From: a virus
Lineage: Duplodnaviria; Heunggongvirae; Uroviricota; Caudoviricetes
DNA length: 29,766 nt
IMG/VR virus record: IMGVR_UViG_2711768076_000016
Direction: 5' to 3' (one strand)
The position numbers were made by a program, and so were the translations under genes. The stretch's first letter is position 1; each line of letters starts with the position of its first letter. The notes under the pieces were generated by a model. The model saw only the letters and a list, made by a program, of their open reading frames with translations. It did not search any database and was not told the origin of the DNA. Shown in pieces: positions 4,780 through 27,257 of the stretch.

Positions 4780-5196
4780 TCAATTATCTCCTTTAAAGGA
4801 GTCGTATTCACCCCAATCAGCAAACCCAATCGGTCTTTTAGGGGTCTCTAAGCATAAGCGTTTTTTTCGGATTAGCAGGACATTTATTTGAGATACATGC
4901 TGAACAAGTTCTACAGGACTGCCATCCTCCAGAGTACCAATGAAAGAAATTAATGATGGATTCCAGTAGCTTATGTCTGTGAAATGAAATTCAATGTTTT
5001 TACCAAAGCTAGCTAGTTGTCCTCCTACCTCATACTCTTCTTCAAGTTCACGGTGAAAATCATTTATCCAGCATATAAGGCGTCTATGAAATTCATTTGC
5101 AAGATTGTAGTCCTTTGGAACATATGGCTGTGAGTATTTGAGGAAATCATTCATGTAGTTATTTGTCATCAGGGCGTCCTTTACGAGCATAACCAT
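4780..5196 (-). CDS. Hypothetical protein (up to 138 aa) on the opposite strand; moron at the position lambda uses for bor
   Basis: Minus-strand ORF, AT-rich, between the lysis cassette and the packaging genes. Start uncertain (in-frame Met codons at 5196, 5169 and 5154). No similarity to Bor noted. Confidence 0.45.
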   Translation of the reverse strand: MVMLVKDALMTNNYMNDFLKYSQPYVPKDYNLANEFHRRLICWINDFHRELEEEYEVGGQLASFGKNIEFHFTDISYWNPSLISFIGTLEDGSPVELVQHVSQINVLLIRKKRLCLETPKRPIGFADWGEYDSFKGDN

Positions 5197-15287: not shown

Positions 15288-15705
15288 TGAAAGAGCTTGA
15301 GTTAAAGAAACCGATTACTGCTCATGGCGAGACACTCTCCGTACTTGAGTTTGATGAGCCCACCGGGAAAGATGTCCGCGAGCTGGGGTATCCCTACCAG
15401 ATGAATCAGGATGAGTCAGTCAGACTTCTGGCGCATGTGGTATCGAAATACATTGTGCGGCTGGCGAAAGTGCCGCAAAACTCTGTCGACCAGATGTCTC
15501 CGGCAGACCTGAATGCAGCGGCGTGGCTTGTGGCCGGTTTTTTCCTCCAGGCCTGACGGCTGAATACCTCACTGATCGCTTCTTTGACTGCGCCAGTTAC
15601 TGGCGCATTAATCCTTTCGAATTGCTGAATATGCCGATCAGTGAAATTCCCTTGCTGGTCAGTCAGGCAAACAGGATAGAGCAGGAGAAACGCACACATG
15701 GCTGA
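15287..15705 (+). CDS. Tail assembly chaperone with a putative programmed -1 frameshift extension
   Basis: Zero-frame ORF 15287..15556 (89 aa). Slippery heptamer T_TTT_TTC at 15538-15544 leads into the -1 frame ORF that ends at 15705, just overlapping the tape-measure start. Confidence 0.5.
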
Positions 15706-17530
15706 ATTTGAGCTTAAGGCGTTGATCACCGGTGTCGACAGACTTTCTCCCGCGCTGTCGAAAATGCAAAAGAAAATCCGGGGATTTAAACGCCAGGCGG
15801 AAGAAGCATCACAGGGTGGGCTGGCGCTTGGTGGCGGACTGGCAGCGGGTCTGACGCTTTCCCTGAAATCTTATGCCGATCAGGAAAACGCCGCCACCGG
15901 GCTGAAAGTCGCCATGATGGATGCGAACGGCGAGGTCGGAAAGAGCTTTCAGGACATCAATAAACTGGCTATTGGCCTGGGTAACCAGCTACCCGGTACA
16001 ACGGCTGATTTCCAGAACATGATGCAGATGCTGGTGCGTCAGGGGATCCCGGCAGAAAATATTCTTGGCGGTGTGGGTAAAGCGACAGCTTATCTTGCGG
16101 TACAACTGAAAAAAACACCGGAAGCGGCTGCTGAGTTTGCTGCAAAGATGCAGGATGCTACCGGAACGGCGTCAGAAGACATGATGGGGCTGTTCGACAC
16201 TATCCAGAAGGCGTTTTATCTGGGCGTTGACGATACCAACATGTTGTCCTTCTTCACTAAAACCAGTTCTGTTCTGAAGATGGTGAACAAGGACGGTCTT
16301 CAGGCTGCACAGAGCCTTGCCCCCATCAGCGTCATGATGGATCAGATGGGGATGAACGGGGAGTCGGCAGGTAATGCCCTGCGAAAAGTTATCCAGTCCG
16401 GATTAAGCGTTAAGAAAATCAGGGACGTTAATAAAGTTATGGCCCGCCAGAAACTCGGGGTACAGCTCGATTTTACTGACGGCAAAGGGAGTTTTGGCGG
16501 TCTTGATAACATGTTCAGGCAACTGGCAAAGCTGCGAAAACTGACCGACGTTAAGCGAACCGGTGTACTTAAGGCAATATTTGGTGATGATGCCGAAACC
16601 CTTCAGGTGGTCAATGCTCTGATCGATAAAGGAAAGGATGGTTACGATCAGATCCAGCAGAAGATGAATAAACAGGCCAGCCTGAATAAACGTGTTCAGG
16701 CCCAGCTTGGTACGCTGTCCAACCTGTGGGAGGCAATGACGGGGACCGCAACTAACGGCCTTGCGGCTATTGGCGGCGCATTTTCTGGTGACGTCAAAAA
16801 TATCACGCAATGGCTGGGGGAGTTAGGGGAAAAATTCACGAAGTTTGCGGATGAAAATCCCCGGGTTATTCGCGGCGTCGTCGGGCTTGCTGCCGGTCTT
16901 GCGATTCTGAAACTGGGATTGATGGGCGTGGGCAGTGCCATCAGTATCGTCAGCAGGATCATGTCGATGACGCCGATTGGCATGATTGCGACGGCGATAG
17001 CCCTGGCTGCGGGATTAATTATCACTAACTGGGATGTTGTCGGACCTTATTTTAAGAAGCTCTGGGAAACCATTAGTCCTTATTTTGAGGCTGGCTGGGA
17101 ACTTCTGAAGAAGGTTTTTGCCTGGTCGCCGCTGGGGATGGTGATCAATAACTGGGGACCGGTTGTTAAGTGGTTTCAGGATATGTGGGATAAGCTGAAG
17201 CCGATTATTGAATGGTTTACCGACAGTTCCGGTGACACGGTCGATGCCATTAACTCGGCGCAGTGGGGCGCGGGTGCTTATGATGCTTATGGGACGGGAA
17301 TACCGCCACGGGGATACACTCCTTATCCGGAGGTGGATCCGGCTCAGGCAAACAACGCCTCCGGTGCCACAGGTCCGAATCCCTTCATGATTAATAAAGC
17401 TACCGCGCCAAAAGTTGATGGTGAGATCAAGGTATCATTTATAAATATGCCACCAGGTATGCGGGTTACGGAAACACGCTCCAGTGGCATTGATATAAAT
17501 CACGATGTTGGCTATACCCGATTTTGGTAG
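15698..17530 (+). CDS. Tail tape measure protein
   Basis: 610-aa ORF, Ala/Gly/Leu-rich with hydrophobic stretches; position after the chaperone. Confidence 0.8.
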   Translation: MAEFELKALITGVDRLSPALSKMQKKIRGFKRQAEEASQGGLALGGGLAAGLTLSLKSYADQENAATGLKVAMMDANGEVGKSFQDINKLAIGLGNQLPGTTADFQNMMQMLVRQGIPAENILGGVGKATAYLAVQLKKTPEAAAEFAAKMQDATGTASEDMMGLFDTIQKAFYLGVDDTNMLSFFTKTSSVLKMVNKDGLQAAQSLAPISVMMDQMGMNGESAGNALRKVIQSGLSVKKIRDVNKVMARQKLGVQLDFTDGKGSFGGLDNMFRQLAKLRKLTDVKRTGVLKAIFGDDAETLQVVNALIDKGKDGYDQIQQKMNKQASLNKRVQAQLGTLSNLWEAMTGTATNGLAAIGGAFSGDVKNITQWLGELGEKFTKFADENPRVIRGVVGLAAGLAILKLGLMGVGSAISIVSRIMSMTPIGMIATAIALAAGLIITNWDVVGPYFKKLWETISPYFEAGWELLKKVFAWSPLGMVINNWGPVVKWFQDMWDKLKPIIEWFTDSSGDTVDAINSAQWGAGAYDAYGTGIPPRGYTPYPEVDPAQANNASGATGPNPFMINKATAPKVDGEIKVSFINMPPGMRVTETRSSGIDINHDVGYTRFW

Positions 17531-17558
17531 CCAGGATTCCCCTCACAGGTATTGCTGG

Positions 17559-17586
17559 TTGTAAGTCATAAATAGAGTGATAGAAT
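17559..17586 (+). promoter_or_regulatory. Candidate sigma70 promoter for the tail-module moron (-35 TTGTAA, 16-bp spacer, -10 TAGAAT)
   Basis: Hexamers read directly, about 36 bp upstream of ATG 17622. Confidence 0.35.
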
Positions 17587-17621
17587 TAATGCACATTTAG
17601 AAAAATGTTAATAGGCGAAAA

Positions 17622-18152
17622 ATGAAAGGCTATATCACAGCAAGTGTAATTCTTGGAGCAGCGGCTATTTTTTCATCTCTCATAATCTCTGGCAACATCT
17701 CCTTTAAAGATGAACATATTATTCAGTTATCTGGAGGAGCCATAAAACTTGGTGATGTTTATAAAGAAAATAAATTGATAAGTGCAAAGATTATTTTTCC
17801 AGATAATCAGGGTGAACAGATTCTTGTTGTCGACGGCAATCCTGAAAACTTTAAGGAGGATTTTCAGGAGAAATTAAATAAAGTAATAAAAACTTTAAAT
17901 GCGTCAAAGAAAAAAGATGAAGAGAAAGTTAGCCTGGATAATTTAAGTGTTATTGAAGAGTCTAAACTAGAGCTCGTTTCTGCGGTGCGTTACTCTGCTC
18001 AGTATGTTCCTATGTTTACTCTGACGCTGGACAAAAAAGAAATTACCATGCCTAAAAATACGGTAATATTTCCATTTGCCAGCGATGAAACAGCTAAGTA
18101 TTTAAATGAACAACAGCAAAAGTATAAAGATTCGTTGTTTCTGACTCGCTAA
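17622..18152 (+). CDS. Hypothetical protein with N-terminal signal/anchor (176 aa); moron inside the tail module
   Basis: Strongly AT-rich ORF inserted between the tape-measure and DNA-circularization genes; N-terminal hydrophobic segment (ASVILGAAAIFSSLIISG) then a Lys/Glu-rich soluble domain; has its own terminator. Confidence 0.5.
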   Translation: MKGYITASVILGAAAIFSSLIISGNISFKDEHIIQLSGGAIKLGDVYKENKLISAKIIFPDNQGEQILVVDGNPENFKEDFQEKLNKVIKTLNASKKKDEEKVSLDNLSVIEESKLELVSAVRYSAQYVPMFTLTLDKKEITMPKNTVIFPFASDETAKYLNEQQQKYKDSLFLTR

Positions 18153-18170
18153 TTAATAAAATTCATTACA

Positions 18171-18197
18171 AGGCCACCTTCTAATAGGTGGCTTTTT
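18171..18197 (+). terminator. Rho-independent terminator after the moron
   Basis: Stem AGGCCACCT / AGGTGGCTT with loop TCTAAT followed by a T-tract. Confidence 0.55.
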
Positions 18198-18213
18198 AAT
18201 TTTCGGAGTATAT

Positions 18214-19542
18214 ATGACGTGGAAAGACAGGCTTCAGGACGCGTCATTTCGCGGCGTGCCGTTTAAGGTTGAAGAAGAAAGTGCGGGAACCGGTCGCCGT
18301 GTGGAAACACATGAATACCCGAACCGCGACAAACCCTATACCGAAGACCTGGGGAAAATCACTTTTCGCCCGTCCATCACGGCTTATGTGGTGGGAGATG
18401 ACTGCTTTGACCAGCGCGATCGCCTGATTGAAGCGCTGAATAAACCAGGTCCCGGCACGCTTGTCCACCCGACATATGGTGAGCTGAAAGTCTGTGTTGA
18501 CGGGGAAGTTCGGGTCAGCACATCGAAAAGTGAAGGGCGTATTGTCCGCTTTGACCTGAAGTTTGTCGAAGCAGGAGAACTCTCTTACCCCACATCAGGT
18601 GCGGCGACGGCGCAGACGCTGATGTCATCCTGTTCTGCACTGGATGACTGCATCAGTGACAGCTTCAGCGGTTTCAGTATCGATGGTGTGGCGGATTTCG
18701 TGCAGAACGACGTTATCGGTAATGCCAGCATAATGCTGGGGTATGTTTCTGATGCGATGAAAGTGGTGGATTCTGCCGTATCGGATGCCGCCAGGCTGTT
18801 GCAGGGGGATATCTCGGTACTTCTGCCGCCGCCATCGTCAGGCAAAAATTTCGTTGAACAGGTGCAGAAAATGTGGCGTACCGGGAAACGCCTTTATGGT
18901 AACGCCAGCGACCTGGTCACCATGATCAAAACGCTTTCTGGTGTCAGCCTCGGCAGCGATTTGCAACCGCGCGGCGTCTGGAAAACGGACAGTAAAACCA
19001 CCGCCACAGCGACGCAGCAGCGTAACATGGTTGCCAGCACCCTTCGTACGACTGCAATCAGCGAAGCGGCGTATGCCGTTACCCGATTGCCTGCGCCAAC
19101 AACTTCTGCGGTGATGCAGAATGCCGCAGTGGGGCAGTCAACAACACCCGCGCAGAGCTCCGGCTGGCCTGCCGTCACGCATCCGGTGCTGAACAATGCA
19201 CCGGCGGTAAAAAACACGGTTGACCTGCCAACGTGGGAAGAACTGACCGACATTCGCGACACACTGAATACGGCAACTGATAAGGAGTTGTCCCGTACAA
19301 CCAGTGATGCGCTGTTTCTGGCGCTGCGCCGGGTGAAAGCAGATCTGAATGCGGATATCAACACGCGCCTTGAACAGTCTGCACGGATCATTCAGCGCAC
19401 GCCGGATGAGGTTTTACCCGCGCTGGTGCTGGCGGCGACCTGGTTTGATAACGCGGCGCGTGACGCGGACATTATCCGGCGTAATGCCATTACGCATCCC
19501 GGCTTTGTGCCGGTGATCCCTCTGAAGGTGCCAGTGCAATGA
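18214..19542 (+). CDS. DNA circularization protein (Mu gpN-like)
   Basis: 442-aa ORF directly after the tape-measure region, as in Mu-like tails. Confidence 0.55.
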   Translation: MTWKDRLQDASFRGVPFKVEEESAGTGRRVETHEYPNRDKPYTEDLGKITFRPSITAYVVGDDCFDQRDRLIEALNKPGPGTLVHPTYGELKVCVDGEVRVSTSKSEGRIVRFDLKFVEAGELSYPTSGAATAQTLMSSCSALDDCISDSFSGFSIDGVADFVQNDVIGNASIMLGYVSDAMKVVDSAVSDAARLLQGDISVLLPPPSSGKNFVEQVQKMWRTGKRLYGNASDLVTMIKTLSGVSLGSDLQPRGVWKTDSKTTATATQQRNMVASTLRTTAISEAAYAVTRLPAPTTSAVMQNAAVGQSTTPAQSSGWPAVTHPVLNNAPAVKNTVDLPTWEELTDIRDTLNTATDKELSRTTSDALFLALRRVKADLNADINTRLEQSARIIQRTPDEVLPALVLAATWFDNAARDADIIRRNAITHPGFVPVIPLKVPVQ

Positions 19543-20659
19543 ACGATAACGTCACGCTACGGGTAAATGGCCGAGAGTGGAATGGCTGGACATCGGTGCG
19601 CATCGGTGCCGGTATTGAACGGCTGGGGGGGGGGNNNNNNNNNNNNNNNNNNNNNNNNNNNNNNNNNNNNNNNNNNNNNNNNNNNNNNNNNCCCGCCAGT
19701 GGCCGGGAGATGAGGGTATCACCACGCTTCAGCCGCGCATTAAAAATGGTTCAAAAGTGGAAGTGCTGATTGGTGATGAGCTGGTGATCACCGGCTGGGT
19801 GGAGGCGACCCCCGTTCGTTACGATGCCCGTTCGGTCAGCACCGGTATTGCCGGACGTAGTCTGACTGCTGACCTGATTGACTGTGCAGCCGAACCGACA
19901 CAGTTTAACGGACGATCGCTGGTACAGATTGCGCAGGCGCTTGCTGCGCCTTTCGGCATTGAGGTGGTGAACAGCGATGCGCCGTCGGGTGTTATTCCGG
20001 ATGTCCAGCCTGATCACGGTGAAACGGTGATCGAGGTGATCAACAAAATACTCGGTCAGCAGCAGGCGCTGGCTTATGACGACCCGCACGGCAGGCTGGT
20101 GATTGGTGGTATTGGCTCAACGCGGGCACATACCGCGCTGGTACTTGGGGAAAACATCCTTTCCTGTGATACGGAGAAGAGTATCCGGGAGCGGTTTTCA
20201 GTTTACCAGGTGGCGGGGCAGCGTGCCGGAAACGACGATGATTTCGGTGAGGCCACCACCACCGCGCTGCGGGCCCGCACAGAGGATGCATTTATTGCCC
20301 GTTACCGTCCGATGTATATCAGGCAGACAGGGCAGGCTACGGGGGCAGGCTGTATTGCGCGTGCTGACTTTGAAGCCCGACAACGGGCGGCGCGGACGGA
20401 TGAAACCACCTATGTGGTGCAGGGCTGGCGACAGGGTAACGGTACGCTGTGGCAGCCCAACCAGCGGGTGATTGTCTTCGATCCGGTCTGTGGTTTCGAC
20501 AATACCGAACTGCTTGTCTCGGAAGTCACGTTTACTCAGGACCAGAATGGCACCCTGACGGAAATCCGTGTCGGCCCACCTGATGCTTATCTGCCTGAAC
20601 CCGAAGCCCCCGGCGCGCGGAAAAAGAAAAAAGCCAGAGTACAGGAGGACCCGTTCTGA
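19539..20659 (+). CDS. Baseplate hub protein (Mu gpP-like), interrupted by an assembly gap
   Basis: ORFs 19539..19769 and 19757..20659 are a single gene split by the N run; combined length of about 373 codons fits. Confidence 0.5.
19635..19691. other. Assembly gap (57 N) preceded by a 10-nt poly-G tract
   Basis: Read directly from the sequence. Confidence 0.95.
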
Positions 20660-25367: not shown

Positions 25368-27257
25368 TTAATCGTATTTTGGCCATACTTTCAATGCAAT
25401 TTCCCCCAACTTTTTACCTCGCTCCTGTATTTCACTCTCATCCCATTTATCCTTAAGTATAAGTGGTATGTTCAGTCGTAGATTGGTGTGGACGATGAGA
25501 GCATCACGTTTTTTCAGAAATACAGCATTCTGAACGGAACGGTTTACGCTAAGGTTAAGCAAAGTTAGATTTCCCAACGTAGCTATCGCTTGTTGCCGTT
25601 TCCTTACCAGTAGCTGTTCAGGGGTAAGATCGGTTCCAGACAGAACAATTTGGTTCATTACCGTAGCATCTGAATTTGTCACCATATGACCATTTTCGAG
25701 AGGCCAACAGGAATACCAACTTTGAGGCATAAGATGATCGATATCGAGATTAGAAAGATTTGGAACATCAGGCTTTTCTGTCTTCACTTGGCGACAAAGT
25801 TCTCTTTCAAGTTCCGTTAACATTGAGCGCATTTTCGGTGCGTCGAGCCTGCCAGGATAAAGTGGAGCATTGATGCAAGCGTTGAGAAATTCTGAGTCCC
25901 CAGGCCAACGTGAGGCTTCGCCATTTAAGCTATTGAGGATATTACGTAACTCAACACTGGAAATTTCCGTTTTAGACAAGTGTCGCAATACATTCATAAA
26001 TACATTGTTGTAATTCTTTGGCGTCAGGCCACATACGGATCTTCGTACTACGTAGGAGACAAGATCATTATACATGGCTGCTTTCTCATCATCGGCGATG
26101 TTAGCTATCGAAATGAACAAAGCAAGCGGATAGAGTGTCGTCACATCATAGGCTGCGATGCGATGTCCAAAGTGTGAGATGGGGGTTGTGCCAAAACCAC
26201 CAACCAATTCTTTATATTGTGATGCATATTGTTTGAGGCGCTTTACTTGCAGATCTGCTCGTTGTGAAGGCAAGTCCTTACTTACATAATCACGATACTC
26301 ATTGTAAAGGCGAGACAGATCAATTTCACGCTGCCTTTCTGATTGCAATGTCGCATGTACAAGCCACTCCATGCGTGGTTTATTAATACGTCCACGGCGT
26401 TGCTTTTCCGACCAGTATTTATCTTCAAAGATCTTCCACTCATTTTCATATAATTCAATAGCATTAATATTTTCATGCTCAGCGCACATAAAGATATAGT
26501 TGCGAATAAGATCCGTTGCATGAAGTTCCGCTCCTCGCCCATTTAATGTTTCAAAAATTATTTGGGCATCATCTTCAGCTTCGAGAAATATGCTTACCAG
26601 TTTCAGATCCGTCAAGACAGCCTCAATTAGTGCTACAGCATTTTCTTGTGGTGAGTGGTTTTCTATTTTAATCCATTTTATAAAGGCTTCAGTAAAAAAC
26701 CATAATGCCTCTAGTGACGGCGGGTGGTTGAAATGTTTACGTAACGTACCATGTTGCGTGAAGCTATCAGAAAATACATTACGGAGATCGTCAATATTAT
26801 CAACATTAAGACTTTGAATAAAATGAGTTTGATCTCGAAAAGTTGGCCACAGTTTGAAGCATTCTACCTTTTTATTTCTCATCGTTGCTTCGTTTGTATT
26901 TTTCAAGCAAGTCAATACTAACCCTTCCAGTTCAGAAAGGCCTGTAGCACGCAATGATAATCGAATGGATGCCAGAATATATTGAAGAGTGGTTAAACGT
27001 TGCTGGCCGTCAATAATATGTATGGTATCTACACCTAACAAGCTGTTTTTGAGTTGAGGTTCCAGCACCACCGCGCCGAGGAAATGAGGGGTTGGTTTTG
27101 TTCCCGAAAGTCGGCTCTGTGCTTTTTCGAAGATATCCTCCAACAAAGCTGACCATTGGTTTCGTTGCGTCCATACGTAGGCACGTTGATAGAATGGAAC
27201 ACGATATTGTCGTTGATTTTGGAAAATTTGCTGGATGGTTAGCGTTTCGGATTTCAT
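25368..27257 (-). CDS. DUF262/DUF1524 fusion protein; putative GmrSD-family type IV (modification-dependent) restriction endonuclease
   Basis: 629-aa minus-strand ORF. N-terminal DUF262/ParB-like motifs (FYQRAYVW, IIDGQQRLTT, FETLNGRGAELHATDLIRN). C-terminal DUF1524/His-Me-finger motifs (DIDHLMPQS, GNLTLLNLSVNRSVQN). AT-rich, convergent with the phage late operon. Confidence 0.7.
   Translation of the reverse strand: MKSETLTIQQIFQNQRQYRVPFYQRAYVWTQRNQWSALLEDIFEKAQSRLSGTKPTPHFLGAVVLEPQLKNSLLGVDTIHIIDGQQRLTTLQYILASIRLSLRATGLSELEGLVLTCLKNTNEATMRNKKVECFKLWPTFRDQTHFIQSLNVDNIDDLRNVFSDSFTQHGTLRKHFNHPPSLEALWFFTEAFIKWIKIENHSPQENAVALIEAVLTDLKLVSIFLEAEDDAQIIFETLNGRGAELHATDLIRNYIFMCAEHENINAIELYENEWKIFEDKYWSEKQRRGRINKPRMEWLVHATLQSERQREIDLSRLYNEYRDYVSKDLPSQRADLQVKRLKQYASQYKELVGGFGTTPISHFGHRIAAYDVTTLYPLALFISIANIADDEKAAMYNDLVSYVVRRSVCGLTPKNYNNVFMNVLRHLSKTEISSVELRNILNSLNGEASRWPGDSEFLNACINAPLYPGRLDAPKMRSMLTELERELCRQVKTEKPDVPNLSNLDIDHLMPQSWYSCWPLENGHMVTNSDATVMNQIVLSGTDLTPEQLLVRKRQQAIATLGNLTLLNLSVNRSVQNAVFLKKRDALIVHTNLRLNIPLILKDKWDESEIQERGKKLGEIALKVWPKYD

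Follow-up and report, generated by a model that had tools for sequence, protein, structure and literature searches.

Why an AT-rich gene for a predicted membrane-anchored protein lies inside the tail operon of a prophage, between two genes that are normally neighbors, is the question raised by the locus described here. The locus is part of the IMG/VR virus record IMGVR_UViG_2711768076_000016, a stretch of 29,766 nucleotides (nt) referred to below as the window. By its gene content, the window is a SfV/e14-type temperate myovirus prophage, integrated at icd in Escherichia coli. The gene in question, termed the cargo gene, is an open reading frame (ORF) of 176 amino acids (aa) with an ATG start, located at 17622-18152 on the plus strand. 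It had been proposed in a first-pass annotation of the sequence that this ORF sits between the tape-measure and DNA-circularization genes, and both the ORF and its position are confirmed. To the left lies the tail tape-measure gene (15698-17530, +; PF10145, 94.6 bits; phrog_28, phrog_17727) and to the right a Mu gpN-like 'DNA circularization' or baseplate hub gene (18214-19542, +; PF07157 (DNA_circ_N), 116 bits; phrog_184, baseplate hub). The span covered by the first-pass annotation, 17559-18197, extends from a candidate promoter through a terminator. The best explanation as a whole, with a probability of about 0.5, is that of a moron in an exchangeable slot whose product would be a periplasm-facing envelope protein that probably acts in superinfection exclusion. 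The first part of this explanation is held with greater confidence. On sequence comparison it is very probable that the cargo gene is a moron, i.e. optional, foreign in composition, bounded by a terminator and exchangeable.

The flanking genes were found in 1093 of 5426 complete E. coli genomes (~20%), and the insert was found together with its flanks in 171. As expected from the first-pass annotation, the comparison with related prophages places the flanking genes next to each other when the insert is absent. They are 60 bp apart in SfV, SfI and SfII and in about half of the related E. coli prophages. An even sample of 60 hits contained 28 with the empty slot and its 60-bp gap, O157:H7 FRIK2533 being one example. 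The lengths are 1079 bp for the span in SfV, SfI and SfII, 60 bp for the gap in O157 prophages and 683 bp for the insert here. The variable slot (17531-18213, no strand assigned) holds the entire insert and has a guanine-cytosine (GC) content of 0.34, compared to 0.51 and 0.555 in the flanks.

The same junction is taken by four unrelated genes in other prophages. Three of them encode a lipoprotein of 225 aa with an LLGGC lipobox (55 complete E. coli genomes), a signal-peptide protein of 164 aa (85 genomes) and a bPH_1 protein (28 genomes). The fourth, a 5'-truncated tRNA_anti-like gene with an oligonucleotide/oligosaccharide-binding (OB) fold, lies on the opposite strand (72 genomes). The cargo gene itself is present in 179 of the 5426 genomes, and a hypothetical gene is also found at this junction in phage SKA5. 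All slot cargo is AT-rich, with GC contents of 0.31-0.42 versus 0.51-0.56 in the flanks. The borders are precise: similarity between slot variants stops at the last 2-4 codons of the tape-measure gene and resumes ~10-15 nt before the start codon of the hub gene. The right border (18204-18213, +) is a conserved cGGAGtatat element that includes the ribosome-binding site of the hub gene, and a near-identical CGGAGTTTAT-ATG is present in all plus-strand variants; the minus-strand OB-fold variant differs here. That the alternative cargo represents diverged homologs was rejected for the lipoprotein and the signal-peptide protein, both of which gave an hhalign probability of <1% against the cargo family. 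Searches of cultured-phage records with the insert alone (megablast, tblastn) yielded no match; its only known sources are prophages and metagenomes. An IS200/IS605-type transposase gene (169-aa ORF) has inserted into one IMG/VR copy, right after the cargo terminator hairpin and before the hub gene (locus L075, 6568-7270).

These arrangements bear directly on the idea that the cargo gene encodes a structural or assembly component of the Mu-like tail, for which the only arguments are that the gene lies in the tail operon and that several genera carry it there. The 60-bp spacing of the neighbors is found in SfV, SfI and SfII, which are infectious, and unrelated genes fill the slot elsewhere. Moreover, the family has a universal N-terminal membrane anchor, stand-alone copies occur in chromosomes and the base composition is foreign to the operon. 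Conservation as a structural gene across Mu-like tail modules had been named at the outset as the observation that would speak against a moron; such conservation was not found, while the family does recur in the slot across several genera. Judged by these sequence comparisons, a structural tail role is excluded, and the idea retains next to no probability.

The sharp contrast in base composition noted in the first-pass annotation is equally clear at the level of the ORF. Its GC content is 0.343 (0.30 at third codon positions, GC3), compared to 0.514 (GC3 0.561) for the tape-measure gene and 0.560 (GC3 0.604) for the gpN-like gene, and it falls within the lowest 4.4% of GC among all 531-bp windows. 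Downstream of the ORF, an intrinsic terminator is located at 18170-18203 (+), with a 10-bp GC-rich stem and a 6-nt loop (18170-18195) followed by a T-run. The description of this element as a clean rho-independent terminator holds: the hairpin has a folding energy of -17 kcal/mol (z = -5.56), and none of 200 shuffled sequences folds as well. Hairpins followed by a T-run terminate all plus-strand slot variants, including the empty slot, although their sequences differ, and the terminator in the gap is annotated as rho-independent in the SfII record. An intrinsic terminator within the tail operon is thus a constant of this phage group, with or without cargo (loci L002, 2035-2094, and L112, 847-885). 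It might set the ratio of tail to baseplate expression or be a relic of past cargo.

Upstream of the ORF, a candidate sigma-70 promoter is located at 17559-17586 (+), with the motif TTGTAA-16-TAGAAT and a TG-extended -10 element. The candidate promoter of the first-pass annotation is thus present as a motif; its 9/12 match in the consensus scan occurs at chance frequency (2 found vs 2.7 expected in shuffled sequences). The TTGnnA block aligns with the regions upstream of the Leclercia and Lelliottia homologs, where the -10 element is out of register. According to published descriptions of morons, such genes are extra DNA between otherwise adjacent genes, differ in base composition and carry their own terminator (PMC3594210), and all three features are found here. 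The same definition, that of Juhala and Hendrix, includes a promoter belonging to the gene and expression from the repressed prophage; here the promoter is a candidate and expression in the lysogen is presumed. Together with the empty slots, the unrelated cargo at the same junction and the occurrences outside of phages described below, this supports a moron-type insertion that encodes a signal-anchored protein, as initially suggested.

Homologs of the cargo gene occupy the same slot in 76 of 80 IMG/VR loci. The order tape measure, homolog, hub is found in Leclercia and in metagenomic contigs, and more distant relatives reside in the same slot in Edwardsiella (41% identity), Mangrovibacter (38%) and a metagenomic relative (30%). 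A narrower family alignment used as locus query recovered two genome loci only. The slot homologs are AT-rich and each is followed by a hairpin and a T-run; the GC contrast is likewise seen in Leclercia, Edwardsiella and Mangrovibacter. Other homologs are found elsewhere. In the Cedecea neteri chromosome, a homolog is located between a phosphotransferase system (PTS) IIB-like gene and a short-chain dehydrogenase/reductase (SDR) gene, in Pectobacterium islands it lies beside IS3 transposases, and further homologs occur in small resolvase or integrase elements, once with a tRNA_anti-like OB-fold gene immediately behind. A distant family member (~20% identity) has a gene for a 271-aa tRNA_anti-like (PF12869) OB-fold protein 30 bp downstream (locus L103, 2491-3864; also L104 and L105). 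PF12869 is also the alternative slot cargo in E. coli that is 5'-truncated and on the opposite strand (strain 042; locus L004, 2063-2449, -), and the two families may be functionally linked.

In Lelliottia amnigena, the gene stands alone 368 bp downstream of icd, with a GATase gene on its other side. Ahead of it, 31 codons from the 3' end of the tape-measure gene persist as a remnant; its own hairpin follows, and no other phage gene is left. This arrangement is present in at least 6 assemblies or samples and comprises two alleles with 5 synonymous and 3 non-synonymous differences. Judged by this gene order, the Lelliottia prophage has decayed on both sides of the gene, and the gene was kept. 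Since it is located downstream of the icd terminator, the orphan would need its own promoter, which is implied in the 368-bp upstream region.

The cargo gene is real and under purifying selection. Between genera, synonymous sites are saturated (proportion of synonymous differences, pS, ~0.75), while the proportion of non-synonymous differences (pN) is 0.08-0.42; the ratio of the corresponding substitution rates (dN/dS) is 0.08-0.23 where computable. Between E. coli and Leclercia, the cargo protein shares 53-55% identity, compared to 68-88% for the sheath, tube, hub and baseplate proteins. Of 181 E. coli records, 180 have an insert of at least 99% identity, and with flanks included full-length matches extend down to 97%. 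The faster divergence of the protein combined with near-uniform E. coli copies fits a cassette that is exchanged between tail modules. These data also bear on the view that the gene is a silent passenger, i.e. a horizontally acquired AT-rich gene that is silenced and hitch-hikes with the prophage. A GC content of 0.34, the weak promoter and the presence of the gene in only 3% of E. coli genomes would agree with a passenger. However, the amino acid sequence is strongly conserved across genera in the face of saturated synonymous change, nearly all of the 181 E. coli records with ≥99% identity have an intact reading frame, and the orphan Lelliottia lineage shows a pN/pS of 0.17, albeit based on small numbers. 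The gene was also selectively kept there when the rest of the prophage was deleted, and a silent passenger is considered highly improbable.

The encoded protein is a full-length member of PHROG 5485 (E = 3.8e-108, 360 bits, residues 1-176 of 176). A remote homology search was proposed alongside the first-pass annotation, and PHROG 5485 is a family without assigned function. PHROG 34391 is listed with it among the closest known entries, and both are of unknown function; as PHROG 5485 carries no annotation, membership says nothing about function. No hit to Pfam, NCBIfam or PADLOC was obtained for the cargo protein, and a sequence-profile search of the PDB gave nothing meaningful. A word-indexed search retrieved only 25 clusters, comprising E. 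coli copies of 99% identity and Leclercia/Lelliottia proteins of 52-58%. A profile search of 1.84 billion representatives recovered 77 proteins, nearly all of which are 170-195 aa in length.

The N-terminal hydrophobic segment and the Lys/Glu-rich body recognized in the first-pass annotation are both evident. Residues 5-23 have a mean Kyte-Doolittle hydropathy of 2.11 and a second hydrophobic segment is absent; lysine accounts for 11.9% and glutamate for 8.0% of residues, together 20% overall and 22% past the membrane segment. Hydropathy, a short lysine-bearing N-terminus and a modeled helix at residues 2-23 define a predicted N-terminal transmembrane helix (codons 2-23, 17625-17690, +), followed by a predicted periplasmic alpha/beta domain (codons 24-176, 17691-18149, +). 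The AlphaFold2 model, built from 38 sequences, has a predicted local distance difference test (pLDDT) score of 91 and a predicted template modeling (pTM) score of 0.75. It contains a mainly antiparallel sheet (residues 33-36, 39-42, 46-59, 66-72, 114-126 and 132-143) that packs on helices 74-93 and 149-171. All 38 members examined share a single N-terminal hydrophobic helix behind a short N-terminal flank of positive charge, and the number of cysteines ranges from 0 to 2. Because the stretch of ~20 residues has no conserved small-residue cleavage motif, it is read as an uncleaved signal anchor with N-in/C-out orientation. Such an anchor is quite likely. A bitopic inner-membrane protein is predicted, with a cytoplasmic N-terminus of 1-3 residues, one transmembrane helix and a periplasmic alpha/beta domain of ~150 residues, and the transmembrane helix and the positive charge on its N side likewise predict a location in the cell envelope. 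Only G39, L43, G44, Y47, E49, Y124 and L134 are near-invariant. As invariant residues of catalytic type are absent, a binding scaffold is more likely than an enzyme. An Rz-type inner-membrane spanin (i-spanin), a type II membrane protein whose periplasmic part is a helical coiled coil and whose partner is an o-spanin lipoprotein, was considered and rejected: the domain is an alpha/beta sandwich, there is no cysteine and no ORF for a partner lipoprotein, and the gene sits in the tail operon rather than in the lysis cassette.

For a function, superinfection exclusion (an anti-phage role) is favored, tentatively and by analogy, at somewhat less than even odds. It is one of the hypothetical roles suggested in the first-pass annotation, next to a periplasmic factor and a virulence factor. 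The closest precedent is gp15 of phage HK97. Its gene is a tail-operon moron adjoining the tape-measure gene, and the product is an inner-membrane exclusion protein, the specificity of which maps to the phage tail region (PMC3594210). In both systems, an extra gene of foreign composition is found by the tape-measure gene and is absent from close relatives. Both proteins have an N-terminal membrane segment, an inner-membrane location (predicted in the case of the cargo protein) and homologs outside of prophages. Superinfection exclusion by gp15 is said to go back to work by Juhala et al. in 2000 and Cumby et al. in 2012. The two systems also differ. HK97 gp15 belongs to the YebO family and shows no sequence relationship to the cargo protein, which has no Pfam hit; it is small, whereas the cargo protein has a folded periplasmic domain of ~150 residues in the model. 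The gp15 gene lies upstream, between the chaperone and tape-measure genes, in contrast to the downstream position of the cargo gene between tape measure and hub. Finally, exclusion has been demonstrated for gp15 and is proposed for the cargo protein.

Further arguments for exclusion come from the slot itself. The products of at least three slot variants are exported or anchored, namely the cargo protein, the lipoprotein and the signal-peptide protein, and that of the truncated OB-fold gene may once have been so too. The long linkage to one tail type would fit the recognition of components of that tail that cross the periplasm, and retention in the phage-free Lelliottia lineage points to a benefit for the host. 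P22 SieA, T4 Imm and Sp, P1 Sim and TP-J34 Ltp are similar in that they are encoded by phages or prophages, are anchored in the inner membrane or exported, and stop the genome from entering once the phage has adsorbed. The tape-measure protein is what Ltp-type proteins act on (PMC3952083, PMC10883804). None of these proteins shows detectable homology or fold similarity to the cargo protein, and none is encoded in this slot. In architecture they include a polytopic protein (SieA), a lipoprotein (Ltp) and soluble periplasmic proteins (Sp and Sim).

The mechanism proposed here builds on a topology, a promoter, expression in the lysogen and an anti-phage role that we infer. In the lysogen, the cargo gene would be transcribed from its own weak promoter just past the tape-measure stop codon, with transcripts ending at the hairpin terminator. 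A Q-type late antiterminator is encoded at 662-1456 (+; PF03589 Antiterm, 177.7 bits) and is annotated as 'antitermination protein' in an identical RefSeq prophage. In lambdoid late transcription, Q-modified polymerase can pass terminators within the late operon. During lytic growth, Q-antiterminated late transcription would thus pass the terminator into the baseplate genes and leave tail production undisturbed, which would explain a strong terminator inside a late operon that does not block baseplate expression. The protein would act in the host envelope and block a periplasmic or inner-membrane step in the delivery of incoming genomes. The targets would plausibly be phages with the same tail type, following the logic of HK97 gp15, P22 SieA, T4 Imm and P1 Sim.

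Several observations weigh against this explanation. DNA of such AT-richness is, as a rule, silenced by H-NS in E. coli. The candidate promoter is a weak match that is no better than chance, a strict promoter scan found none upstream of the Leclercia homolog or the other cargo genes, and one distant relative has only ~35 nt between the tape-measure stop and the start codon. As a hairpin is also present in the empty slot, the terminator is not evidence of import and is as much a feature of the slot as of the insert. No similarity to any characterized exclusion protein was found; searches for homology to exclusion and defense families (gp15/YebO, SieA, Imm, Sp, Sim, Ltp, Cor and the PADLOC systems) were negative. 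Lastly, the recurrence in one slot across Escherichia, Leclercia, Edwardsiella and Mangrovibacter and in the 30%-identical relative could mean a function in the phage's own tail or infection cycle.

This last point leads to an accessory function in the lytic cycle of the phage itself, expressed from the late operon, such as preventing progeny from injecting into infected or lysing cells, aiding the passage of tail or DNA, or timing lysis. The gene is co-oriented with the tail genes in the late operon, Q would carry transcription through it, it occupies the same slot in at least five lineages down to 30% identity, and the promoter evidence is weak. On the other hand, SfV, SfI and SfII are viable without the gene and most related prophages lack it, it is kept under purifying selection where no phage remains and is also found on non-phage elements, and a complete lysis cassette is already present elsewhere in the prophage. 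A lytic accessory role is therefore judged improbable. A benefit to the host could also be independent of phage defense. A lysogenic-conversion envelope factor, for which Lambda Bor and Lom are precedents, might provide stress or serum tolerance, protect against colicins or contact-dependent toxins, or alter the envelope or adhesion. Such a factor would share the architecture and the moron evidence with an exclusion protein. It would also agree with the single gene kept in Lelliottia and Cedecea chromosomes without a phage, with the copies in islands and integrative elements, and with hosts that are gut and environmental Enterobacterales from many animals; moron products with diverse host-directed roles have been described (PMC3594210). 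No similarity to known virulence, immunity or stress proteins was found, however, and the repeated link to one slot of one tail type is easier to understand as a phage-directed function. A conversion factor is thus regarded as rather unlikely.

With exclusion as the favored function, the slot can be compared to known cargo sites of prophages. The P2/P4 hotspots (Rousset et al. 2022, cited in PMC10884400), the lambda lom/bor sites and the sites downstream of Q in Shiga toxin (Stx) phages also represent fixed junctions that carry alternative, unrelated, AT-rich cargo and can be empty. The cargo described here differs from these in that each is one small gene, in most cases for an exported or membrane protein, and no match to a known defense system was obtained (PADLOC). 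The slot could be a dedicated site for small exported anti-phage proteins, with the cargo protein founding a new family of membrane-anchored, periplasm-facing injection blockers directed at tape-measure or hub proteins of incoming phages that share the tail type. This extension is speculative and its chances are low; it would explain both the linkage of the family to the slot across Enterobacterales and why Lelliottia kept the gene, as a domesticated single-gene defense, once the phage was lost. The tail module also has a second variable slot, located between the hub gene and the gpP-like baseplate gene. In Leclercia-type prophages it holds two additional genes, of 503-520 aa and 94 aa, for which no Pfam hit was obtained (locus L008, 10013-11808; also L009, L010, L011 and L016). 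E. coli and Leclercia pneumoniae (L013) are without these two genes.

The assignment of the prophage to the e14/SfV type at icd is based on its copy in strain AMSHJX01. The corresponding region of the window is 100% identical to chromosomal prophages of many E. coli strains. The AMSHJX01 copy encodes lambdoid early genes and the Q antiterminator, a HK97-type head, a contractile Mu-like tail with ymfQ, tail-fibre assembly genes and a pin remnant, and its right end is an icd fragment. The morphogenesis module is common to SfI, SfV and e14, and SfI is a myovirus (PMC3636060). In the window, a run of 57 N at 19635-19691 interrupts the start of the gpP-like baseplate gene, which is intact (1080 bp) in the identical RefSeq prophage; past this run, window coordinates are shifted by 34 bp relative to RefSeq. 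Several small, non-mobilizable 'plasmid' records with the cargo gene correspond to partial prophage copies. They were considered as excised active phage genomes, but the one inspected, CP088862.1 (L111, 35.4 kb), contains IS26, lacks early genes and is more probably an assembly product; it was not used.

Additional cargo is found in the same prophage. A 629-aa AT-rich ORF with GmrSD_N and GmrSD_C domains (25368-27257, -), a defense gene of type IV restriction type, lies just before the icd remnant and, by its domains, is another cargo or defense gene. An AT-rich island (GC <0.40) at 1457-2987, between the Q antiterminator and holin genes, corresponds to the classic moron site downstream of Q and contains a 268-aa ORF without a Pfam match (2138-2944) and a smaller annotated hypothetical gene. 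A further AT-rich ORF on the minus strand (4780-5196, -), between the lysis cassette and the HNH/terminase genes and annotated as DUF6173 in the identical RefSeq prophage, is probably another moron.

Morons in tail operons and cargo hotspots in prophages are already well known; what is new here is an uncharacterized family and a slot that is undescribed in the literature searched, where no account was found of the junction between tape measure and gpN-like hub in SfV/e14-type tails or of the protein. If the protein proves to be something other than an exclusion factor, it would still be a routine hypothetical moron. If it is an exclusion factor, it would bring a family with no structural match to the few known envelope-level phage blocks, which are poorly understood compared to cytoplasmic defense systems. 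The Lelliottia orphan represents a clean natural case of prophage decay around one retained gene. The slot itself is precisely bounded and is located in a very common prophage type of E. coli and Shigella, and could be mined for single-gene envelope defenses or conversion factors, with the lipoprotein, signal-peptide, OB-fold and bPH cargo as candidates.

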